A stretch of 27,362 nucleotides of DNA from a bacterium (GTDB lineage: Bacteria; Sysuimicrobiota; Sysuimicrobiia; Sysuimicrobiales; Humicultoraceae). Location of the stretch: contig JBGQGY010000035.1 of assembly GCA_041497675.1 (NCBI GenBank), forward strand, positions 1 through 27,362, given 5' to 3'. Of the stretch, positions 6,188 to 27,362 are shown one piece after another. The notes beneath the pieces were generated by a model. It ran no database searches, was not told where the DNA came from, and saw nothing but the letters and a program-made list of their open reading frames with translations. The position numbers were made by a program, and so were the translations under genes. Within the stretch, counting starts at the first letter, position 1, and the number at the start of each line of letters is the position of its first letter.

Positions 6188-6198
6188 GCTTCTATTCT

Positions 6199-6274: not shown

Positions 6275-6288
6275 ACAGGAGGTCCATC

Positions 6289-6756: not shown

Positions 6757-6776
6757 ACGAGCGTCTGACCGAACAC

Positions 6777-9659: not shown

Positions 9660-10871
9660 GTGCCGCTTGACTGGATCTCGCCCGACGGCCGTCTCATCCT
9701 GAGCGCCCGCGCGGTTCGTACGTTCGCGTACGGCTTTCAGTCCGTGCTGTTGGGCGTCTATCTCGACGCCAACGGGTTCGCTCCGTGGCAGATCGGCGCC
9801 GTGTTGACGGCTACGCTGTTGGGTTCGGCTGTGTTGACGGCGATCTTTGCGACGACCGCCGACCGATACGGCCGCCGCCGGATGCTCCGGTTGAGCGCGC
9901 TGTTCATGGCCGCGAGCGGGGCCGCGTTTGCGATCACCACGTCGTACCCGCTGCTGTTCCTGGCCTCGCTCACCGGAACCGTCGGCGCCACCTCCGGCGA
10001 GGTCGGTCCGTTCCTCTCGTTGGAGCAGGCGATCCTCCCGCAGACCACGGCGCCCGAGTGGCGCACGCGCCTCTTCTCCCTCTACAACACCCTGGGTGCC
10101 CTTACCGGGGCGGCGGGCGCGCTCGCTGCCGGGACGCCGGCGCTGCTGCAACGCTGGGCGGGTCTGGCCGTCTCGGACGCCTACCGTGTGATGTTCGTCG
10201 CCTACGCAGTGCTGGCGGGCATCACGTTGTGGCTGTTCAGCCGTCTGAGCGACCGCGTCGAGGCGACCGATGGCTCTGGGCGCGGTCGCCTGAATCGCTC
10301 CCGCGGCGTGGTCATGCGGCTGGCCGGTTTGTTCAGCCTCGATTCGCTCGCCGGCGGCTTCGTCGTGCAGAGCCTGATCGCGTTTTACTTCCACCTGCGG
10401 TGGGGCGTCGGCCCCGAGGTGCTCGGACCGGTCTTCATGGGCGTCGGGCTTCTCCAGGCCGTGTCCTTCACCGTCGCCGCCCGAGTCGCTGAGCGCATCG
10501 GCCTGATCAACACGATGGTCTTCACGCACCTGCCGTCGAACGTGCTCCTGATGGCGATCCCGCTCGCCCCGACGCTCCCCTGGGCGATCGCGCTGCTCCT
10601 GGCGCGCCACGCCCTCTCGCAGATGGACGTGCCGGTCCGGCAGTCATACGTCGTGGCCGTCGTCGACCCCGACGAACGGATGGCGGCGGCGGGTGTCACC
10701 AACATCGCGCGCAACCTGGCGCAGTCCGTGACGCCCGTGATCGCCGGCGTGGTGATGCAGGTCGCCGGGTTGGGCGTCCCGTTCCTCCTCGGCGGGGGGC
10801 TCAAGATCGTCTACGATCTCTTGTTGCTTGGGATGTTTCGCACCGTGCGGCCGCCCGAGGAACAGCCATGA
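9660..10871 (+). CDS. Major facilitator superfamily transporter
   Basis: About 12 hydrophobic helices; MFS motif A ADRYGRRR; GPFLSLEQA, MVFTHLPSN, SQMDVPVRQSY. The ORF-track start 9429 overlaps pckA, so the true start is probably GTG 9660 or ATG 9630. Confidence 0.9.
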   Translation: MPLDWISPDGRLILSARAVRTFAYGFQSVLLGVYLDANGFAPWQIGAVLTATLLGSAVLTAIFATTADRYGRRRMLRLSALFMAASGAAFAITTSYPLLFLASLTGTVGATSGEVGPFLSLEQAILPQTTAPEWRTRLFSLYNTLGALTGAAGALAAGTPALLQRWAGLAVSDAYRVMFVAYAVLAGITLWLFSRLSDRVEATDGSGRGRLNRSRGVVMRLAGLFSLDSLAGGFVVQSLIAFYFHLRWGVGPEVLGPVFMGVGLLQAVSFTVAARVAERIGLINTMVFTHLPSNVLLMAIPLAPTLPWAIALLLARHALSQMDVPVRQSYVVAVVDPDERMAAAGVTNIARNLAQSVTPVIAGVVMQVAGLGVPFLLGGGLKIVYDLLLLGMFRTVRPPEEQP

Positions 10872-11767: not shown

Positions 11768-12603
11768 TCCGCACGAGTTATCACACCCACAACCGTTTCT
11801 GCGACGGCGCCGGTGAGGCGGAGGACTACGCGGAGGCGGCCGTGACGGCGGGGCTCGAGGCCTTGGGGATCTCGTGCCACGCACCGCTTACGTTCCCCGA
11901 CGAGGCCGCGATGAAGGCCGAAAGTCTCCCGGCGTACTGTGCCGAGGTGACGCGGCTCAAAGACGTGCACCGCGCGCGGCTGCGGGTCCACCTGAGCCTG
12001 GAATTTGACTACATTCCCGATCGGCACGCGGAGCTATGGTCGATCGTCGCCCCGCACGCGTTCGACTACTTGATTGGATCGGTGCACTTCGTCGGGCAGG
12101 ACGACCGCGGTATCCCCTGGCCGGTCGATCTGAGCCGATCGGGATTCGAGGACGGCCTGCGACGGTATTACGATGGCGACATCCGCCGGCTCGTCGGCGC
12201 GTACTACGAGCAGGTCCGCCGCCTGATCGGGTGGGGTGGCGTGGCCATCCTCGGCCATCTCGACCGTATCAAGAAGTGGAATGACGCCGGGCGTTACTTC
12301 AACGAGGACGACTCCTGGTACCGGAGTGACGTCGAAGCCACGCTGCAGGCGTGCGCGCGCTCGGCGTTGATCGTCGAGATAAATACCGTTGGCTGGCGCA
12401 ACGCCTGCCGGAGTCCGTATCCCAGTCCATGGATCGTCCGCCGCTGTCTCGACCTGAAGATCCCGCTGGTCGTCACGACGGACGCCCACGCGCCGCAGCG
12501 CGTGACCGACTTCCACCCCGAGGCCGAGGCGCTGCTCCGCGACGCCGGCTGCCGAGAGTTGGCCGTGCTGCGCGACGGCGGCTGGCGGATGGAGCCACTG
12601 TGA
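11764..12603 (+). CDS. PHP-family histidinol-phosphatase (HisJ/HisK-like)
   Basis: YHTHNRFCDG, SCHAP, LEFDY, DYLIGSVH, GHLDRIKK, EINT.G, TDAH. GTG start at 11764 (GTGA overlap), not 11386. Confidence 0.88.
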   Translation: MIRTSYHTHNRFCDGAGEAEDYAEAAVTAGLEALGISCHAPLTFPDEAAMKAESLPAYCAEVTRLKDVHRARLRVHLSLEFDYIPDRHAELWSIVAPHAFDYLIGSVHFVGQDDRGIPWPVDLSRSGFEDGLRRYYDGDIRRLVGAYYEQVRRLIGWGGVAILGHLDRIKKWNDAGRYFNEDDSWYRSDVEATLQACARSALIVEINTVGWRNACRSPYPSPWIVRRCLDLKIPLVVTTDAHAPQRVTDFHPEAEALLRDAGCRELAVLRDGGWRMEPL

Positions 12604-13697
12604 CGCTCATCAGCGGTGAACAGAATTTGCTACATTGGCGTGCACCAGTCATTTTGCTCATACTACTGTTGCTCTGGTTGTCTCTTCCTTTCGCGATGGC
12701 TGGAAGTCCGGGAGATCAAGAGATCTCTGTGGGGAGCTTCTACGGTGCGGTAGGTGCCCGTTGGTGTGGGAAGGCAGCATTGCTGATCGAAGGCGAGGCC
12801 GGACTGGAGTGGCTAGACGTGCTGCAAGGTCGGCGGGTGACCGTTACGACGACCCGCGGCGACCATGCAATGAATTGCAGTTTTGATGGCAAGTGGGTAG
12901 TGTATACTACCCGGCCAGCGGAACCGATTGTTGACACATACCCATCGAAGGATTCTGCGTGGGACCGACTTATCGACTTCCTCTGGCGTTTCGAAGTGTC
13001 AAGCGGCGTCAGGCAGCGATTCGCTGCTGTCCGCTCTCCTTATGTGTACGACGCTATGGCTCCCAGCATGATGCGTGTGTTTCTGGGCGGGCCGGTCAAT
13101 ACGCAGGTTCGCATGCCAGCCCCGAGATGGGAAGCTGTTCGATTCCGGCAGGATCGAACCCAAGGTCCGATTGTGTGGTTCCGAGACTCTTCGGGAGTTC
13201 TTGATGTTGCCCGTGATCCCGGAACTCGGGTTTTCATTGAGGTGTTCGGGAGGAACGGAACGAGCAAGACGGTCGACCCAGGTCTAGGGCAACTCTCCGG
13301 CACGGCAACCGACCGCGGCGGTCGAATCTACCTCCGAACTGTTGACCGGCAGCCTCCTACCGTGGCTGTACTCCATCGATGCGAGTTCCAGGGCAATCGT
13401 CTCGTATGTAGGCAGCTTCTCAAGGGCCTCTTTGCGTTTGATGTTGCCCCCGACGGTGGAATTGTCCTCGCGGAGGAAGGTGCGACATGCGTTCGATACA
13501 TCCCCGCGGGGCGGACGGATGGGGAATGTATCGTGCGTAGCTTTCCGTCTCGTTTCCCGTTACTCGAGCCGATGGGTGTTTCGCCTGACGGCAGGTGGCT
13601 CGTCTTTGTTCGGAGAGTGGTTAGACCGTTCTCCCCGGGAATTCAACGACCGGTCGAACGAACCCACATTTTCTTGAGAAGGCTTCCGAGTTGGTGA
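12600..13697 (+). CDS. Hypothetical secreted protein, possibly TolB/PD40-like beta-propeller
   Basis: Open frame from GTG 12600; hydrophobic signal-like segment ending AMA; repeated SFDGKWVVY / APDGGIV / SPDGRWLVF motifs; lower GC and atypical codon usage. Confidence 0.62.
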   Translation: MTLISGEQNLLHWRAPVILLILLLLWLSLPFAMAGSPGDQEISVGSFYGAVGARWCGKAALLIEGEAGLEWLDVLQGRRVTVTTTRGDHAMNCSFDGKWVVYTTRPAEPIVDTYPSKDSAWDRLIDFLWRFEVSSGVRQRFAAVRSPYVYDAMAPSMMRVFLGGPVNTQVRMPAPRWEAVRFRQDRTQGPIVWFRDSSGVLDVARDPGTRVFIEVFGRNGTSKTVDPGLGQLSGTATDRGGRIYLRTVDRQPPTVAVLHRCEFQGNRLVCRQLLKGLFAFDVAPDGGIVLAEEGATCVRYIPAGRTDGECIVRSFPSRFPLLEPMGVSPDGRWLVFVRRVVRPFSPGIQRPVERTHIFLRRLPSW

Positions 13698-13860
13698 GAT
13701 CAGCGCTTGTGAGGGAGGGTGACGACCGATGCCCTCTAGATTCCTACCTCCACTGAATTGGAACGGCCACGCGGTGAGCATGACTAGCTGTCTGGGGCAG
13801 ATCAGCCAAGGTGACCTGCCAAAACTTCTCCTGTGATGACAAAGGCGACGCGTCGAAAGC

Positions 13861-14679
13861 CTACACGGCCGGCTTTGTCGCCTTCAACGAAAAGCTCAGC
13901 GGCAGTTCGCCGGGGAAGTCGGCGGGCAGCCACCAGGTGCCGTCCTCCCGGCGCTCGAGAAACGGCAGCATCGGATAGAAGAGAAAGGGAAATTCGTGAA
14001 GGAAGTCGATCCGCAGTCCCGCCTCGGCGATGGCGGTCACGATCTCTCCCATGCTGTGGGGCCACGCGTACTGGACAGACTGCGTCACGTGGGCGTCGCG
14101 GTCCGCGTACGACCCCCGCACCGGGAACGGCAGCGGATCCGTCCGGTCGAAGTATGGGTAGAGCAGCCGAAGATCTTTTGCATCGTCCCCGTCATCCCAC
14201 GGGTACAAGATGGGATGTTGCTCTGTGATGTAGAAGAAGCCTCCGGGCCGGAGAAAACGCGCGATCACGCGCGCCCAGCGGCGCAGGTCGGGCAGCCAGC
14301 CCAGCACGCCGCGTGACGTGTAGACGACGTCGAACTCACCGCCAAGCGCCTCGGGCAGATCCAGCACGTCGGACCGGATGAAACGCGCGTCGATCACCAG
14401 TTCAGCGGCAAGCGATCGCGCGAGATCGATCGCCCGCTCTGAAAAATCGACACCGGTGACCCGGGCTCCGAGCCGAGCCCACGACAGCGTGTCGTCCCCG
14501 ATGTGGCATTGCAGGTGCAGCAGCGACTTCCCGGCGACATCGCCCACTTCAGCGATCTCGTGAGGCTTGAGACAGATGCCGCCCTTCTTGAACCCTTCCA
14601 GATCGTAGAACGTCGACTGTGCGTTGATGACCGCCCACTCGTCCCACAGGGCGCGGTTGGTCACTCGGAATATATCCAT
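13861..14679 (-). CDS. Class I SAM-dependent methyltransferase
   Basis: GKSLLHLQCHIG, VTGVDFS, FDVVYTSRGVLGWLPDL, LRPGG. Confidence 0.9.
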   Translation of the reverse strand: MDIFRVTNRALWDEWAVINAQSTFYDLEGFKKGGICLKPHEIAEVGDVAGKSLLHLQCHIGDDTLSWARLGARVTGVDFSERAIDLARSLAAELVIDARFIRSDVLDLPEALGGEFDVVYTSRGVLGWLPDLRRWARVIARFLRPGGFFYITEQHPILYPWDDGDDAKDLRLLYPYFDRTDPLPFPVRGSYADRDAHVTQSVQYAWPHSMGEIVTAIAEAGLRIDFLHEFPFLFYPMLPFLERREDGTWWLPADFPGELPLSFSLKATKPAV

Positions 14680-15926: not shown

Positions 15927-17234
15927 TCACAGCGCCAGACCACCGATCAAGCCGGCGACGCCTCCCTTTCGAAAGAGCGCCACCGTCCGATCAGCCGGCA
16001 GTTTCCGGCTCTCGAGCCGCCGGCGAATCGGCAACAAGAAGCGTTCCTCCGCCCGCCCGCGCCGCCGCAGGGCTTCTTCGCACAGATCGACGATCCCCGC
16101 AAGAAACCCCGGGGCAGGTTCGGGCGCGCGCAGACCCAGCCGGATCACCTCGCGGCGATATCCCGCCATGGCCGGCCACGGATCCGATCCCACACGGTCC
16201 TGCACGTATGTCATGACGCTGGGCATCGCCTCAACGAGCGCGAGCGACAGCGCCGCGGCGGCCAGCGGCTCGTCCGGCGGTTGCTGGCAGGCGGGGCGGA
16301 TCTCGATCGTGGCGTTCTTCACGCGGGGTCTCGCGCTGTTCCAGGTGTAGTGCTCGTGCCAGAGAAACATCTCGTAGTCGGATCCGTGCGTCGCCAGGTA
16401 GGCAGTGAACGGCCGGCTGTATTGGACGAAGCGGTGGCCCCGGCGCAGTGAATAACACCGCTGCGCGCACACGAACGCCACGTAGTCCTCGAGGGACGTG
16501 AACCGCCGGGGTGTCATGCCGTGCCGGTGCTCCCCGAGACCCCCAAGCAACCCTTCGCGCCCAGAGACATACTGCCCCACGCGTCCCGCGTAAACCGATG
16601 AGTTCGCGGTCAACGCGATGATCGGCCCCGACACGAGATTCATCACGTTGATCGCGTCAACCAGCTCGCCCCGCGCGACGTCCACCTGCACCTGGTCGCT
16701 GGCCGTCGTGGTGAAGTGCAGCCACGGGCGGCCGATCGCCCGACAGAGCGGAGCGTATCGCCGCTTTGGCGTCATCAATGCCAGGGTCCCACGCGTGCGG
16801 GGCTGGATGCCATACCCCAGCACCCGCATGCCGCGCGATGCCGCGAGCCGGCTCAGACGCGACACCGCCGGCCCCGACAGCGCCTCCAGTTGGTGCAGAT
16901 CATCGGCGGGCGGGAAGACGATCTCGGCCGTGGCCCGTCCGACCTCCACCTCGTAGCCGATCCGCCCCAGGTCGATGCGCACGATCATCCCGCGGCGCGC
17001 CGGATCATCATAGGTGACGTTCTGCCCACCTTCCTCCAGCAGCGGCTCCCAGAGCCGCGAGGTCTCGCCGGCGCGGCCGTCCGGCAGGACCAACGGAAAC
17101 TCGGCCTCGCGCCCGATTTTTCTCGGACCGCGCAGGGACAAAGGAAAATCATTCCTCATCCGCTGCGCCAGACGGTCGATGGCCGCCTGCACGCGTGCGC
17201 TCAGAACGACGGGTAGTTGGACGCGTCCGGGCAC
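15927..17234 (-). CDS. Glutamate-cysteine ligase family 2 (GCS2)-like carboxylate-amine ligase
   Basis: KIGREAEF, EVEVG...E, G.GIQP, TTTASDQVQVD, ALTANS, WNSARPR...TIEIR. Start uncertain (GTG 17234, GTG 17192 or ATG 17159). Confidence 0.78.
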   Translation of the reverse strand: MPGRVQLPVVLSARVQAAIDRLAQRMRNDFPLSLRGPRKIGREAEFPLVLPDGRAGETSRLWEPLLEEGGQNVTYDDPARRGMIVRIDLGRIGYEVEVGRATAEIVFPPADDLHQLEALSGPAVSRLSRLAASRGMRVLGYGIQPRTRGTLALMTPKRRYAPLCRAIGRPWLHFTTTASDQVQVDVARGELVDAINVMNLVSGPIIALTANSSVYAGRVGQYVSGREGLLGGLGEHRHGMTPRRFTSLEDYVAFVCAQRCYSLRRGHRFVQYSRPFTAYLATHGSDYEMFLWHEHYTWNSARPRVKNATIEIRPACQQPPDEPLAAAALSLALVEAMPSVMTYVQDRVGSDPWPAMAGYRREVIRLGLRAPEPAPGFLAGIVDLCEEALRRRGRAEERFLLPIRRRLESRKLPADRTVALFRKGGVAGLIGGLAL

Positions 17235-17860
17235 AGGCGGTACACCCGGTGGCCGATCAGGCGGCCGTCGGCGTCCAGGTGAAACTGGTTCAATTCAAGG
17301 TTGACGATGTCGTCGCGCAGCGACGCGTAAGGATCCAGCCCGCGCAGCTCGCCGTGCAGTTGCTGCATGAAGTTCTGGTGAGACGAGACGAGCACGCGCT
17401 TGCCCCGGTGCGCGCCGAGGGTCCGAGTGAGGAACGCGCGCGCCCGGGCCCGCAACGTCTCGAACGACTCGCCGCCCGGTGGGTTGAGCGAGTACCGGAC
17501 GTGTTCGATCGGCAGGTAGATCACGGATGGAAACTTCTCACGAATCTCGTCCTGGGTCAGCCCTTCCATCTCGCCGAAGCTGCGTTCGATGGCCAGATCG
17601 TCGATGAGCATCTGCTCGCGCGTCCAGCCGGTGACGATCTCGGCCGTCTCGATCGCGCGGCGTAGGCTGGACGCGATCACCACGTCGATCGGCGTCCCGT
17701 CGAAGTTGCCGCGGGCGTCCTGGGCCTGCTGACGGCCCACGTCGAGCAAGGGGGCATCGAGCCGGCCCCCGGTGCGTTTCGAGCGGTTGAGCTCGGTGAG
17801 CCCGTGTCGCAGCGTATAGAGCAGCGTCTGGCCGGGAGCAAGAACGGGTTGATCGATCAT
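17201..17860 (-). CDS. Histidine phosphatase (phosphoglycerate mutase) family protein
   Basis: LRHGLTELN, SSLRRAIETA, ERSFGEMEG, PPGGES, LVSSH. Confidence 0.9.
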   Translation of the reverse strand: MIDQPVLAPGQTLLYTLRHGLTELNRSKRTGGRLDAPLLDVGRQQAQDARGNFDGTPIDVVIASSLRRAIETAEIVTGWTREQMLIDDLAIERSFGEMEGLTQDEIREKFPSVIYLPIEHVRYSLNPPGGESFETLRARARAFLTRTLGAHRGKRVLVSSHQNFMQQLHGELRGLDPYASLRDDIVNLELNQFHLDADGRLIGHRVYRLCPDASNYPSF

Positions 17861-17874
17861 CCCTCAGGCGTCTC

Positions 17875-19821
17875 CTACAGATTCCTGATCTGGACGGGCC
17901 GAGCGGGTTCGGCCGCATCGAACCCGAAGACGCGCGAGTAGAAGTAGAGCTCGGCATCCAGCGCCTGCCTGATGTTCTCTGCGCGGCGGAACCCGTGCTG
18001 CTCGCCCTCAAAAGGCACATAGGCCACCGGGATGCCCCTTTCGCGCAGCGCGGCAAACATTCGCTCCGCCTGGTTGGGCGGCACGACCTTGTCCTCGAGC
18101 CCTTGGAACAAGATCAGCGGGCACGAGACGCGGTCCACAAAGTGGATCGGCGATCGCTGCACGTACAGGTCGCGGCGCTCCGGATAGGGCCCGACCAGCC
18201 GGTCGAGATAGCGCGACTCGAACTTGTGTGTCTCGGTGGCCAGGGCCTCGAGATCGCTGACCCCATAGTAGCTGGCCCCCGCCGTGAAGACGTGACGAAA
18301 CGCCAGCGCCGCCAGCGTCGTGTAGCCGCCCGCGCTGCCCCCGCGGATCGCGAGCCGCCTCCCGTCTACCTGGCCGCGCTCCACGAGGTACCGCGTCCCG
18401 TTGACACAATCGTCGATGTCGACGATGCCCCACTGGCCGTTGAGCCGCTCTCGATAGGCCCGGCCGTATCCCGTGCTGCCACCGTAGTTCACATCCAGCA
18501 CGGCAAAGCCGCGGCTCGTCCAGAACTGGATACTGAGACTCAGCGTGTTCGATGTCGCGCCCGTCGGCCCGCCGTGGCTGATCACTAGCAGCGGGGGCCG
18601 TTCTCCTGCCGGGGCGGCATAGTCCGTGTTCCTCGGAGCATAGAAGAATGCGTGCGCGGTGTTGCCCTGTTCGGTCGGGAACTCAATCGCCTGGGGGATC
18701 GACAGATAGCCGGAATCGATCGGATGCTCCCAGCTGCGGCGCAGCACTTTGACATCACCTGTGGTCGTGTCCACTGTGACAATCGAGGGGGCTTCTGTAG
18801 GCGACCCACCCAGGAAGACGGCTCGCCCGGGCGCGGCACGGACACTGGCAATCTCGGTGTAGGGCACATCGATCGGTCGCAGCGTTCGAGTGGTGAGATC
18901 CAGCTCGGCCAGGTGCCAGATCCCACGCTGAGTATACGAACAGATGATGCGAGCGGGTGACGCGAACGCGTAGGTCGACATCCCAAAGACCCATTGGGGC
19001 CCGCCGAATTCAGCCTCCAACTCGATAAGGATGTCGGCGCGTCCGCCGTGCAGGCGGTAAAGGTTCCACCACCCGGTCCGATCCGACACGAAGTGCAAGA
19101 TCCCGTCGGGCGACCACTCGGGTTGGAAGATGGACTCGTCGGTGCCACCCGCCACGAGTTCCGCCCGGGCCACGGAGCCGTCGCCGGCGAGTTCGCCCAC
19201 CCACAGGTCGGTGCCGTCCCACGGCATGTTGGGATGGTTCCACGCGAGCCAGGCCAGACGCGACCCATCGGGGCTGAGACGAGGAGATGAATAGAAATCG
19301 TATCCGGAGGCCAGCACCCGGACCGGTCCGCGTCCTTCGATATCGAGGCTCACCAGCGTGTTGACGGCTTCGCGTGCTCCGGCCGTGTGATCTTCGCGAA
19401 CGCAGATGATTCTCTCGCGGCGCCGGTCGATCCCGCCGTCGGCATAGCGCAGGGTCCGCCCGGGAGCGCGGGGGGGCACGTGCTCGGGCAGCGGGGAGAT
19501 GGGTCGCGGTGCCGCGCCGGGATCCTGGCGGTAGAGCCGCTGGTCGGCAAAGTGTGAAAAGTAGACCACGTCGCGGTCGGCGATGTAGGCGCCGCCCCCG
19601 TATTCATTGGCCAGCGTGCGGGCGTTGAAACCCGGCGGCGTCACGTCGACCGTGCGGCCGTCGGGAGTGCGCCGGACCACGACGGAACGACCCTCCTCCG
19701 CCGGCCGTGTCTCCAGCCAGCAGACTTCGTCCCCGTCAAGGACGACTCGCTCCAGGCGGACGGCAGCCGTCGCGATCAGATCGGCGGTGATCGGCGACTT
19801 CCAGGAGCCGTACGACGCCAC
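17875..19821 (-). CDS. S9 family serine peptidase (dipeptidyl/acylaminoacyl peptidase-like)
   Basis: YGSWKSPI N-terminus, [30 protein letters not shown], nucleophile GGSAGG, QGLED, EQHGF. Confidence 0.95.
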
Positions 19822-19825
19822 GATG

Positions 19826-21184
19826 CTATCCTTCCACTTCCGTCAGCGACGCGTCCAAGATGTCCAGGGCGCGGTCCATCTCGTCGCGCGTGACCACCAG
19901 CGGGGGGCTCAGCAGGATGACGTTGCCCATCGTCAGTTTGAAGCTCAACCCTTTCGACAACGCGCAGTACATCACGGTTTCGGCCTGCGCCGTCGCGCGG
20001 GCGCGTGTGACGCGGTCGGTCACGAGCTCGATTCCCAAGAGCAGCCCCAGGCCTCTCACGTCACCGATCAACGGGTGCCGGTCTTTCATCGCGGTGAGAC
20101 GATCGAGGGCGTATCGGCCCAGATCTCGCGCGTGCGCCAGGAGCCCGTGTTGTTCGATGTAGCGGATCGTGGCGAGCGCCGCGGCAGCGGCGACCGGGTT
20201 TTTCTCGTGCGTATAGTGGCCCAGCGCCATCTCACCGGCGACGTCGAACCGCTCACGGGCGATCAGCGCCGCCAGAGGGAAGACCCCTCCGCCCAGACCC
20301 TTTCCGAGGACCAGCATGTCCGGGACGACGCCGTAGTGCTCGCAGGCGAACATCGCGCCCGTCCGCCCCAACGCCGTGGGAATCTCATCGAGAATCAACA
20401 ACGCGTTGTGTCGGTCACACGCGCGCCGGACGACCTGCCAATAGTCGCGCGACGGGATCACCGGGACGCTTCGCACCGTCTCGGCCACAACCGCCGCGAC
20501 GTCGCCTTCCTGTTCCAGCACGTATTCGATGTGCGACGCGCACTTGAGGTCGCACCCGCCCCGGTGATGACAATCCCACTGGCACCGATAGGGATCCGGC
20601 GGCGGCACGTGTTCTGCGCCCGGCATAAGCGGGCCCATGTCGCGCCGGAACAGCTCCTCTCCCCCGACGGAAATCGCGTCGAGCGAGGCGCCGTGAAACG
20701 AATCCCACATGGAGATGGTCTTGTACCGGCCGGTGACGACGCGAGCGAGCTTCAGCGCCATGCCAATGGCGCCGGTCCCGCTGGGACACAACAAGACTTT
20801 GTTGAGATCGCCCGGTGCCAGTTCGACGAGTGTTCTGGCCAGGTCCACGGCGACCCGATTCGTGTAACGGCGTGGGCTGAAGGACAACTCGTCGAGCTGC
20901 GTCTTGATGGCCGCCAGGACGTCGGGATTCCCGAACCCGACCTGATGCACGCTGTTGCCGTGGAAGTCCATGTAGCGGCGGCCCTGGAGGTCTTCGATGA
21001 AGATCCCGTCGCACCGCCGCAACGCGTTCAGACACGGCGTCGACAGCGACTGGTGGAGGAAGTAGCGCGCATCGTCCTCGAGCAGCGCGCGCGTCTGACC
21101 ATCGAGCGCGGCCGCCTGCCAGGCGGCGCGCTGAGCAGACACGTTGACGTCGCCCTCGGACTGCGTGCGCGGAGTCTCGCTCAT
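19826..21184 (-). CDS. pbfA: (R)-1-hydroxy-2-aminoethylphosphonate ammonia-lyase (class III aminotransferase fold, PLP)
   Basis: Motifs I recognise from Pbf[58 protein letters not shown] Lys in [17 protein letters not shown]. An aepX homologue lies about 5 kb away. Confidence 0.88.
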
Positions 21185-22113
21185 GCAGACCTTGGTGGTT
21201 CCCGCCGCTGCGCGAAACTCCTGCCCGCGCGATGCCTCTCCGGTATCGCGGCCAGAAAGGCCGCCAGCAGAGGAGAGAGCACGCGGTCGGCGTGGTAGAC
21301 GAGCGCGAAATCCAGGCTGAGCGGCTCGCGCAGCCGGCGGCCGATCAGGCGGCCGGCGGCGAGTTCCTGCGCGACCGCGGCGTGGGCCATGATCGCGACC
21401 CCAAGACCGTCGGCCACCGCGCTCTTGATCGCCTCGTTGCTTTCCAATTCCATCGATGGCTCCGCGCTGAGGCCGTGCGCCTGAAACGCCTGCTCGATCA
21501 GGCGCCGCGTGGTGGAGCCGGGCTCGCGCAGAATCAGCGGGGACCCGCGGAGATCCTGGATCGACACGATCGACTTTCGCGCGAGGCGGTGATCGGGCGG
21601 GAGCACAACCAGCATCCGGTCGCGGATCAACGGCCGGGAGATCAAGTGTGGATCATCCGGCCGGCCGGCGATGAGGCCAGCGTGCAGCGTAAAGTCCACG
21701 ATGCCGGTCAGGATCATCTGCGAGTTGCCTACCGACAGGCTGACTTTGACCCCAGGGTACCGGCGCTTGAAACGGTCGAGCAGGTCGGATACGTAGTAGG
21801 CGCCAGCCGTGCGGCTGGCGCCTATTTTGAGGTGCCCCGTCTGCAGAGCCGCCGCACCCTCCAGCGCGTCACGAGCGGCATCCACCAAATGGAAGATGCG
21901 CCCGGCAAACGCCTCCAGGGTCTGTCCGGCCTCGGTCAGGGCCAGCCGCCGGCCGTTCCGGTGGAAGAGTTTCAGCCCGACCGCCTGCTCCAGACGGCGA
22001 ATCTGCTGCGTGACCGCGGGCTGGGTGATCCCGAGCGCGCGCGCAGCCTTGTTGACACCCTGGTGGCTCACCACCTGATGAAATGTTCTCAACGGAACGA
22101 GTAGTATGTCCAT
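21181..22113 (-). CDS. LysR-family transcriptional regulator, probable aminophosphonate-responsive activator
   Basis: HTH AARALGITQPAVTQQIRRLE, LTEAG, LKIGAS, REPGSTTR, SNEAIKSAV..GLG. Stop overlaps the pbfA start (ATGA). ATG 22113 is preferred over 22131. Confidence 0.93.
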   Translation of the reverse strand: MDILLVPLRTFHQVVSHQGVNKAARALGITQPAVTQQIRRLEQAVGLKLFHRNGRRLALTEAGQTLEAFAGRIFHLVDAARDALEGAAALQTGHLKIGASRTAGAYYVSDLLDRFKRRYPGVKVSLSVGNSQMILTGIVDFTLHAGLIAGRPDDPHLISRPLIRDRMLVVLPPDHRLARKSIVSIQDLRGSPLILREPGSTTRRLIEQAFQAHGLSAEPSMELESNEAIKSAVADGLGVAIMAHAAVAQELAAGRLIGRRLREPLSLDFALVYHADRVLSPLLAAFLAAIPERHRAGRSFAQRREPPRSA

Positions 22114-22123
22114 GTGCGAAAAG

Positions 22124-22140
22124 CATAACATGATTTTATG
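22124..22140. promoter_or_regulatory. LysR-type recognition site CATAA-N7-TTATG (T-N11-A)
   Basis: Perfect 5-bp dyad in the divergent intergenic region. It overlaps the putative lysR -10 (TATGCT, minus strand 22127-22122) and lies 21 nt upstream of the TTGACA of the divergent promoter. Confidence 0.75.
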
Positions 22141-22161
22141 ATTTGGACCAGAATACCTTAT

Positions 22162-22191
22162 TTGACATTATGAAACGCGACGTCCGATAAT
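22162..22191 (+). promoter_or_regulatory. Sigma70-type promoter TTGACA-N18-GATAAT for the CoA-transferase operon, likely leaderless
   Basis: TTGACA 22162-22167, GATAAT 22186-22191, in-frame ATG at 22199 with no SD sequence. Confidence 0.7.
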
Positions 22192-22198
22192 GCTCGTG

Positions 22199-23116
22199 AT
22201 GCCTCCTAACAAGGTCATGACCGCCGCCGAGGCGGTCGCGCGCTTCGTCCATCCGGGCAACGTACTCGGGATGGGTGGACAGAACATCGGCCGCTGCCCG
22301 ATGGCCCTCACCCACGAGATCATCCGCCAGCGCGTCGGGGGCCTGACCGTGGTGGGTTGTAACCTCTCCCTGTCGATGGATCAACTCGCCGCGGCCGGTC
22401 TCATCCGGCGGACCGAGTGCGGCACGGGCAACCTGGAGCGATTTGGGACGACGTTCAGCTGGCGCCGGGGCATCGAAAACGGCACGATCGAGATCGAGGA
22501 CTACAGCCACCTGGCGATGGTCAGCCGTTTCCTGGCCGGCGAGATGGGTCTCCCGTTCATGCCGGTACGCAGCCTGCTTGGGTCGGATATCCTGTGGGCC
22601 CCGGACGGCGCGCCGAAGCCCGGCAAGGCCGTCATCACCGAGAACCCGTGGGATCCGGCCGAGCGTGTGGTGCTGGTCCGGGCGCTGCAGCCGGACGTGT
22701 CGATCGTCCACGCGCAACGCGCCGATGCGGTCGGGAACGTCATCATCGAAGGGTTCGCGACGCACGAGCCGGAGATGATGCGCGCGTCCCAGCACGTGAT
22801 CGTCTCGTGCGAAGAGTTGGTCACGACCGACGAGATCCGCGCGCACCCCGAACGCACGACCATCCCGTTCATGTACGTTCACGCAGTCGTTGTCCAGCGG
22901 TACGGTGCGTTTCCGACGTCAACGTACGCCTACTACGACTACGACGGCGGCCAGATCGGCGCGTATCAAGACGCCGCCCGGACCGGGTCGCCGGCGATCG
23001 ACGAGTACCTGCGGCGTCACGTCTGGGGATGCGGCACGTTCGACGACCACCTCCATCTGGCCACGGACGCCGATCGCCTCACGACCCTCACCCATGCGAT
23101 GCAGGAGTTGATGTGA
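22199..23116 (+). CDS. Family I CoA-transferase alpha subunit (GctA-like)
   Basis: KVMTAAEAVARFV..G, R.PMAL.HEIIRQ, EDYSH, AGEMGLPFMP.RSLLGSD, PDVSIVHAQRAD..GN, VIVSCEE, GAFPT. Confidence 0.9.
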   Translation: MPPNKVMTAAEAVARFVHPGNVLGMGGQNIGRCPMALTHEIIRQRVGGLTVVGCNLSLSMDQLAAAGLIRRTECGTGNLERFGTTFSWRRGIENGTIEIEDYSHLAMVSRFLAGEMGLPFMPVRSLLGSDILWAPDGAPKPGKAVITENPWDPAERVVLVRALQPDVSIVHAQRADAVGNVIIEGFATHEPEMMRASQHVIVSCEELVTTDEIRAHPERTTIPFMYVHAVVVQRYGAFPTSTYAYYDYDGGQIGAYQDAARTGSPAIDEYLRRHVWGCGTFDDHLHLATDADRLTTLTHAMQELM

Positions 23117-23931
23117 TGTCGCGCGAGACGCCGCACCTTGCGCCGTTTTCCCGTCAGGAGCTGATGGTGATCGAAGCGGCCCGGCAGCTGCGGGACGGCG
23201 ACATCGTGTTCGTCGGCACCGGTCTGCCGATGCTGGCGACCACCCTGGCCCAACGCACGCACGCGCCCGACGTGGTCATGGTCATCGAAAGCGGCGTCAT
23301 CGCGCCCCAGGTGCGTCCAACGCCGATCTCGGTTTCGGACCCCAAAGCCATGTACCGGGCGATGAAGCTCGGCACGCTGCGCGAGGTCCTGGGGTGTCTG
23401 CTGCAGCGCGGGTTGATCGACGTGGGCTTTGTCGGCGGCGCTCAGATCGACCGGTATGCCAACATCAACTCGACGCAGATCGGGCCCCCCGGCGCGATGA
23501 AACGGCGGCTGCCTGGGAGCGGCGGCGCGAACGACATGGCGTCGCACTGCCGGCGTCTGCTGATCATCACCCACCACGAGAAGCGGCGCTTCCCCGAGCG
23601 GTGCGATTACGTCACCAGCCCAGGGTTTCTCGATGGACCCGGCGGCCGCGCGCGCGTCGGATTGAACCCGGACTTCGCTGTGACCGTCGTGACCGATCTC
23701 GCCGTGATGGAGAACGACCCGCGCACCTGCGCGCTGCGCATCGTCCGGCTCATGCCCGGCATCACGGTTGAGGACGTGCGTGCCGAAACCGGGTTCCGCC
23801 CCGACGTGGCGCCGGATCTTCGCGAGGTCCCTCCGCCGGACGCGGAGGTGTTGGACAGGCTCCGGCACGACGTGGATCCGGGGCGCGTATATCTGAAATC
23901 GGAAGACGCCGTACCAACGGCCGGGAGGTAA
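23116..23931 (+). CDS. Family I CoA-transferase beta subunit (GctB-like)
   Basis: ATG overlaps the alpha-subunit stop (TGATG) with a GGAG RBS; VFVGTGLP, IESG (catalytic Glu retained), GGAQIDRYANINST, GSGGAND, VTSPG. Confidence 0.9.
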   Translation: MSRETPHLAPFSRQELMVIEAARQLRDGDIVFVGTGLPMLATTLAQRTHAPDVVMVIESGVIAPQVRPTPISVSDPKAMYRAMKLGTLREVLGCLLQRGLIDVGFVGGAQIDRYANINSTQIGPPGAMKRRLPGSGGANDMASHCRRLLIITHHEKRRFPERCDYVTSPGFLDGPGGRARVGLNPDFAVTVVTDLAVMENDPRTCALRIVRLMPGITVEDVRAETGFRPDVAPDLREVPPPDAEVLDRLRHDVDPGRVYLKSEDAVPTAGR

Positions 23932-23934
23932 CCA

Positions 23935-24789
23935 ATGGACGCGAAGGCCGTGAAAGAACGCGAGCCGTTTCACTGGCAGACATCGATCGCCTACAAGAAC
24001 AAGGACAAGATCGTCGTCCGCGGCTACGACAACAACGACCTCACGGGCAACGTGACGTTCACCGAGATGGCCTACCTGGTCTGGCGGGGCGACCTGCCGC
24101 CGGCGAACCACGCCCGCATGCTTGACGCGCTGCTGGTCAGCATGGCCGAGCACGCGTTCTCACCGTCGTCGGCCGCCTGCCGCTTTGTCGCGTCGGGCGG
24201 GGTGCCCCTCCACGTCGGTGTGGCGGGCGGGATGCTGGCCATCGGCTCGCTGCACGGCACGGCCGACCGCCCGGCGCAACTCTTCACAGACGCGGTCGAG
24301 CGGATGCGGACGGACGGTCTGACCATGCCGGAAGCGGCGTACAAGGTCGCGGGAGAAGCGCGCGCCGCGGGCCGCCGCCTGCCCGGGTACCACCACGCGC
24401 AGCACATCATCGACCCACGGACGGCGCGCATACTGGGGTTGTCCGACGAGTACGGCATCTCGGGCGCGTACGTCGCGATGGCCAGAGCCATCGAGGCCGC
24501 CACGGAGGAGTTCTGGGGGCGGCGGATCTACCTCAACGGCCCAGGGGCCATGGGCGCGGTCTGCCTGGACATGGGGTTTGACGTGGAACTGATCAAGGGT
24601 GTGTTCTTGCTGTCGCGCACCGTCTCGCTGATCGCGCACACGTACGAAGAGATGCACCGAGAGAAGGGCTGGCGGGCGTCGACCAACTCGCCTATTGTCC
24701 AACCCCTGGATCTGTCGTTGCAGAAGCCGGAATTCTACGACGGGCCGCGCGACCGCCCGCTGCCGAAGTCGCAGGGCGGCGGACGGTGA
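23935..24789 (+). CDS. Short citrate-synthase-family / citryl-CoA-lyase-like protein with altered active site
   Basis: W.TSI......I.VRGY...DL.G N-terminus, L...G.LP, AEH..SPS, G.LHG, LPGYHH..H..DPR, LNGPGA, SR...L.AH..EE; GGAGG RBS. Confidence 0.82.
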   Translation: MDAKAVKEREPFHWQTSIAYKNKDKIVVRGYDNNDLTGNVTFTEMAYLVWRGDLPPANHARMLDALLVSMAEHAFSPSSAACRFVASGGVPLHVGVAGGMLAIGSLHGTADRPAQLFTDAVERMRTDGLTMPEAAYKVAGEARAAGRRLPGYHHAQHIIDPRTARILGLSDEYGISGAYVAMARAIEAATEEFWGRRIYLNGPGAMGAVCLDMGFDVELIKGVFLLSRTVSLIAHTYEEMHREKGWRASTNSPIVQPLDLSLQKPEFYDGPRDRPLPKSQGGGR

Positions 24790-26249
24790 GCGCGCGCGCG
24801 GCGCTGCTCGAAGGGATCCCGCAGGGCCTGTTCATCGGCGGGCGGTGGGAAGAGAGTCGATCCGGCCGCACGATCCCAACCCACAATCCGGCAACCGGCG
24901 AACTCCTCGCGCAGGTGCCGCTTGCAGACGCGGCGGACGTCGATCGCGCTGTCCAGGCGGCCGCTGCCGCGTTCCCCGCGTGGTCGGAGATGCCCGGCCC
25001 GCAGCGGGGAGAGCGCCTCCGCGCGGTGGCGGCTGCGCTCCGCGAGCACCGTGAGGCGCTGGCGCATCTCGACGCCGTCAACTCAGGCAACATCATCGCC
25101 GGGATGCGCCGCGACGTCGATTGGGCCATCGACTCCCTCGAATACTTCGCCGGGCTCATCCCCGAGATCAAAGGCGAGACGCTCCCGTCGGACGCCGCCC
25201 TCTTCCACTATACGGTGCGTGAACCGTTCGGCGTCGTCGCCAAGATCAATCCTTACAACCACCCGGTGCGGTTCGCCGCCGAAAAGCTGGCGGCCCCGCT
25301 GGCGGCCGGCAACACCGTTGTGATGAAGCCACCGGAGCAGGCGCCCCTCTCGTCGCTGGTGCTCGGGCGGCTGCTGCAGACGATTCTCCCGCCCGGCGTG
25401 GTGAACATCGTCACCGGTGACGGGCCGACCACCGGCGCCTCGCTCGTCCACCACCCGCTCGTGCGGCGCATCGCGCTCATCGGATCGGTCGAAGCCGGGC
25501 GCGCGGTCATGCGCGCGGCCAGCGACGACCTCAAGACCGTGACGCTCGAACTGGGCGGCAAGAACCCACTCATCTTGTTCCCCGACGTCGACCCTGCCGA
25601 GGCCGCTGACGCGGCCGTCGGCGCCATGAACCTCAACCGTGCCGGCCAATCGTGCAGCAGCACGTCGCGCGTGTTTGTGCACCGCCACCTGCACGACGCG
25701 TTCGTCGAGGCGCTGCTGGCCCGGCTGCGAAACCTGCGGGTCGGGCTGCCGGACGCCGACGACAGCCAGATGGGCTGTCTGATCTCGAGGGAACAGCACG
25801 AGAAGGTGCTGTCGTACATTGAGGCAGGCAAGCGCGAGGGCGCGCGGCTGCTCTTCGGCGGCGGCGTGCCCGATGACCCGGGGCTGCGGCGGGGGTTTTT
25901 CGTCCAGCCCACGTTGTTTGACGGCGTGCGGCCGGAGATGAAGATCGCGCAAGAAGAGATCTTTGGCCCGGTGATCAGCCTCCTGACATGGGACGATGAG
26001 GAGGAGATGCTCCGTCAGGTGAACAGCGTGATCTACGGCCTGAGCGCAGCAGTATACACTCATGACTATGCGAAGGCCCACCGGATCGCGCGGCGGATCG
26101 AGGCGGGGTATATCTGGGTGAACATCCCCGGCGGCCACGTGCTGGGTTCACCCTACGGCGGCATCAAGCAGAGCGGCATCGGCCGGGAAGAGTGCCTGGA
26201 CGAACTGTTGTCCTACACGCAAGTCAAGAGCGTCCGGATGCGGCTGTAG
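24786..26249 (+). CDS. NAD(P)-dependent aldehyde dehydrogenase, PhdK-like subfamily; candidate phosphonoacetaldehyde dehydrogenase
   Basis: REPFGVV, PYNHP, KPPEQAP, IALIGS, LELGGKNP (Glu), GQSCSSTSR (Cys), EEIFGPV, PYGGIKQSGIGRE; GTGA overlap with the upstream gene. Confidence 0.93.
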   Translation: MSARAALLEGIPQGLFIGGRWEESRSGRTIPTHNPATGELLAQVPLADAADVDRAVQAAAAAFPAWSEMPGPQRGERLRAVAAALREHREALAHLDAVNSGNIIAGMRRDVDWAIDSLEYFAGLIPEIKGETLPSDAALFHYTVREPFGVVAKINPYNHPVRFAAEKLAAPLAAGNTVVMKPPEQAPLSSLVLGRLLQTILPPGVVNIVTGDGPTTGASLVHHPLVRRIALIGSVEAGRAVMRAASDDLKTVTLELGGKNPLILFPDVDPAEAADAAVGAMNLNRAGQSCSSTSRVFVHRHLHDAFVEALLARLRNLRVGLPDADDSQMGCLISREQHEKVLSYIEAGKREGARLLFGGGVPDDPGLRRGFFVQPTLFDGVRPEMKIAQEEIFGPVISLLTWDDEEEMLRQVNSVIYGLSAAVYTHDYAKAHRIARRIEAGYIWVNIPGGHVLGSPYGGIKQSGIGREECLDELLSYTQVKSVRMRL

Positions 26250-26310
26250 CAAGGGTTTGGGGCACGGCCGGGGAAATACTGCGCGGAACGCCCACATGAG
26301 GGGGTGCGCT

Positions 26311-27362
26311 ATGCCGCAAGGCGTGAAAGCGACAGGCAAGTTGGCAGTGGCCCTGGTGGCCATTGTGATCCTCGCGATAGGTTTGGCTCCCCAGGCTATC
26401 GCTCAGGCGCCGACGCGATTGACCGTCTACACCGCCATTGAGAATGACCAGTTAGGCTACTTCAAGTCGTCGTTCGAGGCGGACACCCCCGGGGTCATCA
26501 TCGACTGGGTGCGTGACTCGACCGGGGTCATCACGGCCCGCATCCTCGCCGAGCGGGCAAACCCCCGCGCCGACGCCATCTGGGGACTGGCCGTCACCAG
26601 CCTGTTGATCTTCGAAGACCAGAACATGCTCCAGCCGTACACACCTCGAGGCGCGGATGCTCTCAAACCCGCGTTCCGCGACAGCAAGAACCCCATGAAC
26701 TGGACGGGTATGGACGCCTTCCTGTCTGTGATCTGCTACAACACCGTGGAGGCGAAAAAGCGGGGTCTGCGCGCCCCCTTCTCCTGGCAAGACCTGCTCA
26801 GCCCTGCCTACAAGGGACGGATCGTGATGCCCAACCCGGCATCGTCCGGTACCGGTTATCTCACGATCGCGGCGTGGCTGCAGATGATGGGTGAGCAGAA
26901 GGGTTGGGCGTTTATGGACAAGATCCACGAGAACATCGGTATCTACCTCCACTCCGGCTCGGCGCCGTGCGTGCGGGCGGCGCAGGGGGAGTTCTCGATG
27001 GGCATCGGGTTCGACGGGCGCGGCGCGCTCCTGAAGCAGCAGGGGGCGCCGATCGAAGTCATCATTCCGAAGGAAGGCGCCGGCTGGGACATGGAGGCGA
27101 CCGGCATCATCCGCGGGACGCGCAACCTGGCGGCCGCGCAGCGCCTGGCGGACTTTGCGGTCAGCCGCAAGGCCAACGAGATATACAACGGCGTCGGCGG
27201 GCCGGACCGGACGTCGTACGCGATCGTGGCGCTGCCCGGCATGACCAATGTGCCGCCTTTCTACCCACCGAACGCTGAGAAACAGATGTTCAAGAACGAC
27301 TTCGCGTGGATGGCGAAGAATCGGGACCGCATCCTCCAGGAGTGGGCAAAGCGCTACGACGC
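26311..27362 (+). CDS. aepX: 2-aminoethylphosphonate ABC transporter substrate-binding protein (AepX), 3'-truncated by window edge
   Basis: Not in the ORF track because it has no stop in the window; translated by hand from ATG 26311. Signal peptide, then LTVYTAIE, WVRDSTGVITARILAE, ADAIWGLA, WTGMDA, MPNPASSGTG, YLHSGSAPC, GWDMEA, KNDFAWMAKNRDRILQEWAKRYD. Confidence 0.9.
   Translation, partial: MPQGVKATGKLAVALVAIVILAIGLAPQAIAQAPTRLTVYTAIENDQLGYFKSSFEADTPGVIIDWVRDSTGVITARILAERANPRADAIWGLAVTSLLIFEDQNMLQPYTPRGADALKPAFRDSKNPMNWTGMDAFLSVICYNTVEAKKRGLRAPFSWQDLLSPAYKGRIVMPNPASSGTGYLTIAAWLQMMGEQKGWAFMDKIHENIGIYLHSGSAPCVRAAQGEFSMGIGFDGRGALLKQQGAPIEVIIPKEGAGWDMEATGIIRGTRNLAAAQRLADFAVSRKANEIYNGVGGPDRTSYAIVALPGMTNVPPFYPPNAEKQMFKNDFAWMAKNRDRILQEWAKRYD

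Follow-up and report, generated by a model that had tools for sequence, protein, structure and literature searches.

A CoA-dependent gene module with a citrate-synthase-fold protein is a candidate route for carbon-phosphorus bond cleavage in bacterial aminophosphonate catabolism

How is the carbon-phosphorus (C-P) bond of an aminophosphonate broken by bacteria that carry genes for its import and deamination but no known cleavage gene beside them? The question is raised by a 27,362-nt stretch of bacterial DNA (assembly GCA_041497675.1, contig JBGQGY010000035.1; Sysuimicrobiota), referred to here as the window, in which a gene block at positions 19826-27362 joins genes for the uptake and deamination of 2-aminoethylphosphonate (2-AEP or AEP) to genes for a two-subunit CoA-transferase (CoT-A and CoT-B), a citrate-synthase-fold (CS-fold) protein and an aldehyde dehydrogenase (ALDH). 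To our knowledge, few C-P-breaking routes have been described, namely those of PhnX, PhnA, PalA, PhnY*/PhnZ and C-P lyase. In soil and ocean surveys of phosphonate turnover, only those genes are counted. The initial annotation of the window proposed that the CoA-transferase, CS-fold and ALDH genes encode a new pathway, in which phosphonoacetaldehyde passes through phosphonoacetate and phosphonoacetyl-CoA to acetyl-CoA and phosphate (Pi). Our analysis assigns a probability of roughly 0.5 to the full reading, that of a LysR-controlled, substrate-inducible locus for catabolism of 2-AEP and (R)-1-hydroxy-2-AEP (R-HAEP) through these intermediates. The weaker claim, that the module processes an acid derived from a phosphonate, is considered probable.

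In the proposed pathway, AepX, together with AepV and AepW encoded just past the window, would import the aminophosphonate, and PbfA, plus PhnW encoded just past the window, would convert the substrates to phosphonoacetaldehyde; model matches show these five proteins to have the predicted import and deamination functions. The ALDH, or the aldehyde:ferredoxin oxidoreductase (AOR) found in its place in some loci, would oxidise phosphonoacetaldehyde to phosphonoacetate, after which the transferase would move CoA from acetyl-CoA (or succinyl-CoA) to phosphonoacetate, giving phosphonoacetyl-CoA. The CS-fold protein would then hydrolyse the C-P bond of this thioester to release phosphate and acetyl-CoA, and the transferase would recycle the acetyl-CoA in an acyl-exchange cycle as in citrate lyase. 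We infer the ALDH, transferase and C-P cleavage steps from conserved gene context and active-site anatomy.

Open reading frame (ORF) listing and family scans found all seven genes named in the initial annotation at the positions given there, and its gene identities, divergent layout and junctions (a 1-nt overlap, a 3-nt gap, a 4-nt overlap and a 61-nt gap) all hold. On the reverse strand, pbfA, encoding (R)-HAEP ammonia-lyase (19826-21184; PF00202), passes the NF049939 cut-off (716.7 bits vs. 525) and overlaps by 4 nt with lysR (21181-22131; PF00126 and PF03466); because of this overlap, the two genes are probably co-transcribed. The best NCBIfam model for the LysR protein is phn_lysR (TIGR03339), which is associated with AEP catabolism, at a score of 233.6 bits that lies under the cut-off of 341.1. 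Divergent from lysR, on the forward strand, the operon begins with CoT-A (22190-23116; PF01144, 101.3 bits), a family-I subunit of the glutaconate-CoA-transferase (Gct) type, which overlaps CoT-B (23116-23931; PF01144, 93.3 bits) by 1 nt if the latter starts at ATG 23116; an alternative start is GTG 23113. A gap of 3 nt separates CoT-B from the gene for the CS-fold, citryl-CoA-lyase-like protein (23935-24789; PF00285, 106.9 bits), which overlaps by 4 nt with that for an NAD(P)-dependent ALDH (24786-26249; PF00171, 527.7 bits). Finally, 61 nt beyond the ALDH gene, aepX (phnS2; 26311-27360, its 3' end cut by the end of the window) encodes the substrate-binding protein of a 2-AEP ATP-binding cassette (ABC) transporter, passing the TIGR03261 cut-off (448.1 vs. 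392.75) over profile positions 6-330 of 334; its start is taken as ATG 26311, and the frame is open from TTG 26257.

Neither phnX, phnA, a phnY orthologue, phnZ nor C-P lyase was detected by Pfam on the 29 ORFs of the window, and tblastn with two PhnX, one PhnA and E. coli PhnG/H/I/J/M queries gave no match in it, which bears out the absence noted in the initial annotation. For a view beyond the window, one genome per GTDB species was scanned with an alignment of the CS-fold protein, and the window and the best 80 of 87 relatives were retained (81 sequences). Since the scan relied on the peptide patterns G[FY]HH[PA]QHI and [AT]EM[AV]YLVW, the presence of the first motif in the loci is partly by construction. 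ORFs were called with a GC3-guided caller and clustered, and cluster representatives and singletons were annotated. The caller missed two genes that tblastn recovered (a PhnX-like gene in locus L021 and the AOR gene in L023), and the ORF-based census is thus incomplete.

The closest loci (L001-L019), with 75-95% identity in the CS-fold protein, come from metagenome-assembled genomes labelled Armatimonadota, Candidatus Sysuimicrobiota or 'Bacillati bacterium ANGP1', or bearing no name. On the longer contigs among them (L003, L006, L007 and L019), aepX is followed by genes for an ABC ATPase, a PhnU2 permease (TIGR03262, 774.7 vs. 593) and PhnW (TIGR03301, 390.7 vs. 360.8), in the order aepV-aepW-phnW, and then by unrelated genes. 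The initial annotation had named phnX or phnA just past the end of the window as evidence that would count against its proposal; in these four relatives neither gene lies downstream of aepX, and the operon continues as aepV-aepW-phnW. A LysR gene occupies the equivalent position in L002, L003, L006, L007, L010, L012, L014, L015, L016, L018, L019, L023 and L026.

The module is not confined to the lineage of the window. CoT-A and/or CoT-B adjoins the CS-fold gene in 65 of the 81 sequences, from several phyla, and CoT-A is adjacent to the B subunit in 61 (ORF cluster 2). Because the arrangement recurs so widely, it is not a chance adjacency. An aldehyde oxidiser is also encoded in 55 of the 65 transferase-linked loci, a count made up of 53 loci, a partial ALDH in L005 and the AOR in L023; among the ten loci without one, five lie on contigs that end within ~400 nt after the CS-fold gene (L004, L008, L013, L016 and L026). 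As predicted, the block of CoT-A, CoT-B, CS-fold and aldehyde-oxidiser genes recurs beside genes for phosphonate uptake and deamination in unrelated lineages.

The oxidiser takes three forms. In the window lineage it is a BADH-like ALDH; the window protein carries the ELGGK and GQSCSS motifs of the ALDH superfamily and matches BADH best, at 487 bits, under the cut-off of 668.6. In each of the 40 actinomycete loci, the operon opens with the gene for a GucD-like ALDH, only 34-38% identical to that of the window. In L023 and L080, a MoaD-like small protein and a tungsten-type AOR fill the position, and their genes follow the CS-fold gene (L023, 5687-7976; L080, about 5130-7467); the L023 AOR was recovered in two tblastn pieces and may contain a frameshift. 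Because three different enzymes fill the oxidiser slot, the conserved element appears to be the function of converting aldehyde to acid and not one enzyme, which argues for a conserved order of aldehyde, acid and acyl-CoA. Interchangeable oxidisers are the pattern expected if the acid is the substrate of the transferase. The transferase itself is a family-I, Gct-type enzyme, with separate A and B subunits that both match PF01144. CoT-B matched the beta subunit of glutaconate CoA-transferase (1POI_B) at E 5.5e-51, with 'viESGvi' aligned to 'ivESGlm'; the conserved Glu of this ESG motif (E58) is the catalytic residue.

Phosphonate marker genes confirmed by family models were found in 30 of the 65 transferase-linked loci, and their kinds vary by lineage. 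PbfA, AepX, PhnU2 and PhnW mark the window lineage; PbfA, PhnW and PhnU2 mark L023 (Methylomirabilota) and PhnW marks L021 (Rokuibacteriota). Five Catenulispora loci encode true PhnS (502.5 vs. 310), PhnU and PhnV, PhnW marks Streptosporangiaceae, and 10 of the 40 actinomycete loci carry PhnW. Sciscionella carries a PbfD-type oxidase (TIGR03364) and a major facilitator superfamily transporter, and L073 carries PhnU, PhnV and PhnW. The count rises to 52 of 65 with two weaker markers, a weak PhnS-like binding protein and a recurrent FAD oxidoreductase (826 aa) that is 45-70% identical to one encoded beside phnW-phnA-phnY on S. meliloti pSymB. Because the phosphonate partners differ between lineages, the pattern argues for repeated recruitment to phosphonate genes and not a single inherited accident, and the genomic context supports a phosphonate role well.

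A variant of the cluster (L010, L011, L014, L015, L017 and L018) encodes a class-III aminotransferase that is only 36-39% identical to PbfA, and a Liv-type ABC transporter is encoded downstream in L010, L015 and L018; neither the aminotransferase class nor the Liv type is specific to phosphonates. Upstream of lysR in L010 (4142-8013, with the same positions in L015 and L018) are genes for an ArsN1 N-acetyltransferase of the arsinothricin/phosphinothricin type (218.8 bits vs. a cut-off of 170), an SDR protein and a GlnA-like ligase, which hints that the variant acts on a phosphinate or another aminophosphonate.

The PF00285 match of the CS-fold protein places it in the citrate-synthase fold and is confined to the C-terminal half of that profile (positions 165-355 of 357). 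Among solved structures, its best relative is the citryl-CoA lyase (CCL) of Hydrogenobacter thermophilus (PDB 6HXP, E 3.3e-40), which was also matched by Foldseek (E 1.1e-16) with an AF2 model of pLDDT 90.3; TMq to CCL and to the CCL modules of ACLY was 0.72-0.74. Nevertheless, the protein falls short of the cut-off of each of six NCBIfam citryl-CoA lyase models (222.5 vs. 245, 207.9 vs. 212, 190.8 vs. 193, 168.2 vs. 261, 103.1 vs. 409 and 86.8 vs. 323). Alignment to CCL and citrate synthases revealed that H107 (in LHG), H154 (in GH), R162 (in DPR) and R228 are kept, the two His being at least 90% conserved in one alignment of the family (A2) and the two Arg invariant in both alignments (A1 and A2). 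We take these residues to be the equivalents of His274, His320, Arg329 and Arg401 of pig citrate synthase, the latter two being the oxaloacetate-binding Args.

The catalytic Asp of the NVD motif (Asp375 in pig citrate synthase and Asp1026 in ACLY) is missing. The NVDG of 6HXP, PNVD in citrate synthases, is replaced by N201-G-P203-G in the window protein, and Asp is absent from this column in all 79 family members, which read NGPG, NAPG, NAVG or NDPG; in the Chloroflexi homologues an Asp stands one residue earlier (INDPG). According to their PDB titles, structures of the ACLY mutants D1026A and D541A hold citryl-CoA, and it is the equivalent Asp that is replaced here. New residues occupy active-site positions (H153, Q156, H157, T109, D111 and R112): GH has become an invariant HH[AP]QH, and the HGGAN of CCL has become HGT[AFS]D-R. 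Because the catalytic Asp is absent and new invariant residues are present, the protein is not an ordinary citryl-CoA lyase; it belongs to a compact subfamily of its own in which the active site has been rebuilt, and the public name 'citryl-CoA lyase' misses a defining feature.

The surrounding family is broader than this subfamily. Among 132 representatives of 50% identity clusters (P0124-P0266), the catalytic Asp is present in 82 and the HH pair in only 5; 50 lack the catalytic Asp, and many of them also lack the His of LHG. These Asp-less 'citryl-CoA lyase-like' relatives look like a large mis-named set. Public records name the relatives of the window protein 'citryl-CoA lyase' or 'citrate synthase', the ESM Atlas yielded only generic 'citrate synthase' clusters, and a plasmid search with the CS-fold protein returned only relatives of <=38% identity from other subfamilies. 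In a tree made by a quick method, the transferase-linked proteins fell into three groups: the window lineage (19), Rokuibacteriota/Methylomirabilota/Myxococcota (5) and actinomycetes (40). All three share [LIV]HGT[AFS]DRP. Ten spirochaete proteins without a transferase branched apart from these (SH-aLRT 96), and a further group consisted of three Chloroflexi proteins; in both, the signature is [RK]H[AG][SV]A[DE][VI] and the Arg has moved, standing at 106 instead of 112 in the spirochaetes.

The chemistry proposed for C-P cleavage is sound on established grounds. The hydrolytic C-P enzymes PhnX, PhnA and PalA all depend on a carbonyl beta to phosphorus in their substrates. A thioester draws electrons more strongly than a carboxylate does, and the citrate-synthase fold is built to stabilise the acetyl-CoA enolate. 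In the mechanism envisaged, H107 and H154 would polarise the thioester and activate the attacking water, or H154 might itself accept the phosphoryl group. R162, R228, the family-specific R112 and the HH[AP]QH cluster would hold the phosphonate at the place of oxaloacetate, and the leaving group would be the acetyl-CoA enolate. The Asp with which citrate synthase forms its enolate by deprotonation would not be needed and could be lost; its loss fits this mechanism because the enolate would arise by bond cleavage and not by deprotonation. It is tentatively proposed, as a candidate assignment, that the HH[AP]QH/NGPG protein is a phosphonoacetyl-CoA phosphonohydrolase. No earlier C-P-cleaving enzyme would have this fold or take a CoA thioester as its substrate, and the reaction might proceed through a phospho-histidine. 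With the Gct-type CoA-transferase and any aldehyde oxidiser, it would constitute a third hydrolytic AEP route in Sysuimicrobiota/Armatimonadota-type soil lineages, Methylomirabilota, Rokuibacteriota and many cultured Streptosporangiales and Catenulisporales.

Parts of such a route have precedents in known systems. The PhnW-PhnY-PhnA route (AEP to phosphonoacetaldehyde, phosphonoacetate and then acetate and Pi; for example, S. meliloti pSymB, L083) shares with the module loci the AepX/phnS2 transporter type, the entry enzymes PhnW and PbfA, the 826-aa FAD oxidoreductase of some loci and, as proposed, the intermediate phosphonoacetate. Unlike in that route, PhnA was found in none of the 81 sequences, and the ALDH is not a PhnY orthologue; whereas PhnA is a zinc enzyme of the alkaline-phosphatase superfamily that acts on the free acid, the module would use a CoA thioester and a CS-fold protein. 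The PhnX (phnWX) route has the same substrates, the intermediate phosphonoacetaldehyde and an electron sink beta to phosphorus, but PhnX is of the HAD fold and uses a lysine Schiff base and no CoA. The CCL of H. thermophilus and the CCL module of ACLY have the same truncated citrate-synthase fold and the same His and Arg equivalents; the window protein differs from them in NGPG for NVDG, HH[AP]QH for GH and HGTAD-R for HGGAN, and in having a CoA-transferase instead of citryl-CoA synthetase as its partner and a phosphonate neighbourhood.

The logic of the proposed cycle is likewise familiar from citrate lyase (CitDEF) and malonate decarboxylase, in which an acid is loaded on a thiol in exchange for acetate and the lyase regenerates the acetyl-thioester, although these systems use a prosthetic group bound to acyl carrier protein and lyases of unrelated folds, and they cleave C-C bonds or release CO2. 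In the sulfoacetate pathway (SauT/SauS/Xsc), another heteroatom analogue of malonate is activated with CoA before carbon-heteroatom cleavage, but by an AMP-forming ligase, with reduction of the thioester to the aldehyde and thiamine diphosphate (ThDP)-dependent cleavage; the module operon contains no ligase, acylating dehydrogenase or ThDP enzyme. Finally, GctAB (1POI) is, like the transferase of the module, a two-subunit family-I enzyme with a conserved ESG Glu, but no glutamate-fermentation genes lie near the module.

Several observations weigh against the full reading, beginning with the enzymes themselves. The window ALDH fails the PhnY model TIGR03250 (256.5 bits vs. a cut-off of 635.65) and is 30.5% identical to S. 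meliloti PhnY (tblastn), and the ALDHs of the module are not PhnY orthologues. With the Asp gone, another acid would have to protonate the enolate, and the candidates are D111 and the newly gained His residues. An aldehyde oxidiser is lacking in five informative transferase-linked loci (L014, L017, L018, L022 and L044). In 22 loci the sole marker is the PhnS-like binding protein, whose 75.7 bits fall far short of the cut-offs (310-395), and markers are missing altogether from 13 of the 65 transferase-linked loci, 6 of them being contigs of <=5.1 kb; L015, L017 and L018 of the variant cluster are among these 13. There are also homologues outside the transferase-linked groups. Those of spirochaetes, without a transferase, lie beside pepM-ppd in L052, L055, L071 and L079 (about 10001-10850 in each), inside phosphonate biosynthesis and glycan clusters; beside AepX, PhnU2 and GntR in L051 and L068; divergent from a true phnX in L050; and in unrelated contexts in L020, L025 and L062. 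Identity is 54-61% for the homologues of L052, L055, L071, L079, L050, L020 and L025. The Chloroflexi homologues (L029, L035 and L044) are followed by lipoamide dehydrogenase, with 2-oxoacid dehydrogenase E1 alpha and beta as well in L029 and L035, and L044 also carries CoT-A and CoT-B. The spirochaete and Chloroflexi relatives, with their different active-site signature, may well have another activity; even so, they show the family to extend beyond a single pathway and speak against a simple view of one family with one reaction.

The remaining points of this kind concern known or possible C-P enzymes near the module. Within the ~10 kb searched around each locus, tblastn found PhnA (S. meliloti query) and PhnG/H/I/J (E. 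coli queries) in none of the 81 sequences, and C-P lyase and PhnZ-type families were absent from the Pfam and NCBIfam tables of 307 singleton ORFs and cluster representatives. PhnX-like genes were found in two sequences. That of the spirochaete L050, which has no transferase, is a true PhnX (317.8 bits vs. a cut-off of 220), and that of the transferase-linked L021 lies beside phnW and adjoins the module; it scores 157.6 bits with TIGR01422, under the cut-off of 220, and keeps the PMG..K motif. The mutual exclusivity with phnX and phnA that the initial annotation had put forward thus holds for nearly all loci over this range but is not absolute. The Sciscionella locus L074 encodes at its edge (437-1474) an amidohydrolase of PhnM-like type that shares 35% identity with E. 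coli PhnM; a C-P lyase operon might lie just outside that sequence, which contains no PhnG-J. Proteins of PF01663, in the alkaline-phosphatase superfamily, are encoded in L010 (13729-14856) and 12 actinomycete loci (e.g., L039, 16740-18287) and could be real C-P hydrolases. The actinomycete members end in a choice-of-anchor J domain, of a surface-anchor type, and their genes stand near a DUF47/PhoU-like gene, a PHO4 phosphate transporter gene and phnW. Furthermore, phnX, phnA or C-P lyase may lie elsewhere in the carrier genomes, beyond the neighbourhoods covered.

These observations give substance to the alternative that survives best, in which unlinked PhnX, PhnA, C-P lyase or PF01663 proteins cleave the C-P bond, and the ALDH, CoA-transferase and CS-fold proteins handle the carbon product or a look-alike of the phosphonate. 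In one version, acetaldehyde would be converted to acetate and acetyl-CoA; in another, malonate semialdehyde would be converted to malonate and malonyl-CoA, with the CS-fold protein as a decarboxylase making the acetyl-CoA enolate. Phosphonoacetate and malonate are isosteres, and the gene searches reached only ~10 kb per locus; the PhnX-like gene and phnW adjoining the module in L021, the PF01663 proteins of 13 loci, and the variant cluster with its less specific aminotransferase and Liv-type transporter can all be read in the same way. Against this reading, if acetate were activated, the CS-fold protein would be left without a function, as the base for using acetyl-CoA is absent; no malonate or beta-alanine gene appears in any annotation table of the loci; and the PF01663 proteins of L010 and L039 gave no match to the PhnA model TIGR02335 at E 0.01, while a control PhnA scored 536 bits. 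Moreover, the module lies in one operon with aepX, aepV, aepW and phnW, opposite pbfA, with overlapping or 3-nt junctions, and different lineages have linked it, independently of one another, to phosphonate genes of different kinds. For these reasons, this alternative is considered unlikely.

A second alternative retains a phosphonate substrate and assigns the CS-fold protein a different bond. It would be a C-C lyase or synthase whose substrate is an acyl-CoA that bears a phosphonate, and it would leave the C-P bond untouched, for example, cleaving phosphonomethylmalyl-CoA to acetyl-CoA and phosphonopyruvate, an oxaloacetate analogue, or 3-hydroxy-4-phosphonobutyryl-CoA to acetyl-CoA and phosphonoacetaldehyde. 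All known members of the fold form or cleave C-C bonds adjacent to an oxo-acid, and the equivalents of Arg329, Arg401 and His320 are retained; in addition, the spirochaete homologues directly adjoin pepM-ppd, and the Chloroflexi homologues adjoin a 2-oxoacid dehydrogenase, a potential consumer of an oxo-acid product. Against this stands the absence, in all 79 of 79 family members, of the Asp used by all characterised C-C members. The conserved aldehyde oxidiser and the link to enzymes that make phosphonoacetaldehyde would be left unexplained, no PalA-type hydrolase of the phosphoenolpyruvate-mutase family or other C-P enzyme appears in the annotation tables of the transferase-linked loci, and the spirochaete and Chloroflexi signature differs from that of the transferase-linked clades. 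Condensation of phosphonopyruvate with acetyl-CoA is known, but it is carried out by FrbC, of the homocitrate-synthase type (PMC8942020); the 'citrate synthase-like' enzymes of PMC8942020 and PMC9088020 are FrbC/Psf2, which PMC8942020 describes as homocitrate synthase homologs. This alternative therefore appears improbable.

The loss of the catalytic Asp and the 3-nt gap to CoT-B, which suggests translational coupling, might also indicate that the CS-fold protein is no longer catalytic and is either a subunit that assists or regulates the CoA-transferase or a protein with a binding role. This is very improbable, since the remaining active-site residues are strictly conserved, new polar residues (H153, Q156, H157, D111 and R112) have been gained, and spirochaetes carry the CS-fold gene without a transferase. 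That the block is an ordinary citryl-CoA lyase or citrate-metabolism operon merely lying beside phosphonate genes, as the public names of the relatives and the H. thermophilus CCL as best solved relative would have it, is scarcely credible given the scores under all six model cut-offs, the missing Asp, the lack of citryl-CoA synthetase or any other citrate gene nearby, and the recurrence of the phosphonate link in several phyla.

Several further features of the window accompany the block. An AT-rich control region of 58 nt (22132-22189) separates the divergent lysR and CoT-A. A promoter-like TTGACA-18-GATAAT (22162-22191, forward strand) matches 11 of 12 consensus positions; it is a consensus match only, and the terminator and promoter scan found 1 promoter-like site vs. 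0.7 expected by chance. Its -10 box overlaps the annotated start of CoT-A, and, if the site is used, a leaderless transcript would begin from ATG 22199. Downstream of pbfA, on the same reverse strand, are genes for an S9 peptidase (17875-19821), a histidine-phosphatase-superfamily protein for which no equivalog model matched (17201-17860) and a GCS2 carboxylate-amine ligase (15927-17234); the phosphatase and ligase genes also follow pbfA in L003, L006, L007, L012, L016 and L019, and the genes at 15927-19821 may be part of the pathway, for example, in gamma-glutamylation or phosphoryl handling. At the other end of the window (3-3820, forward strand) a second Gct-type CoA-transferase B-like gene, its 5' end cut, is followed by genes for a DHDPS-family aldolase, a D-2-hydroxyacid dehydrogenase and a SIS/NagB-II-like protein. 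In the spirochaete L020, a pair of DHDPS-family genes precedes the CS-fold homologue. The G+C content of the window ranges from 0.59 to 0.70, and the lower value belongs to a region without a confident gene (12603-13861), where an ORF (12351-13697, forward strand) had no Pfam, Rfam or tRNA match; Rfam and tRNA scans of the whole window gave no match.

Literature searches found no paper linking the catabolism of phosphonoacetate, AEP or phosphonates to a CoA-transferase or to a citryl-CoA lyase, citrate-synthase-like or PF00285 protein. Phosphonoacetyl-CoA was encountered in one work only, a 2026 flavophos preprint, in the available part of which it is a predicted and not an observed product of a BKACE enzyme. 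The available texts of the papers on PbfA (PMC8154272), PbfF (PMC12366243) and PbfB-D (PMC10590968), whose supplementary cluster tables lay outside the search, do not mention CoA or citrate in any relevant connection.

Such a route would join the hydrolytic AEP pathways as a new variant, with a cleavage enzyme of a new kind. Because the module is present in cultured strains of Nonomuraea, Streptosporangium, Actinomadura, Spirillospora, Catenulispora and Sciscionella, the hypothesis is directly testable. If it is true, a new enzyme class would be added, the 'citryl-CoA lyase' annotation of the CS-fold family would be corrected, and attention would be drawn to the large set of Asp-less relatives that make up 50 of the 132 representatives. 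It would also explain the use of aminophosphonates by organisms that carry pbfA, phnW and aepX but no known cleavage gene.

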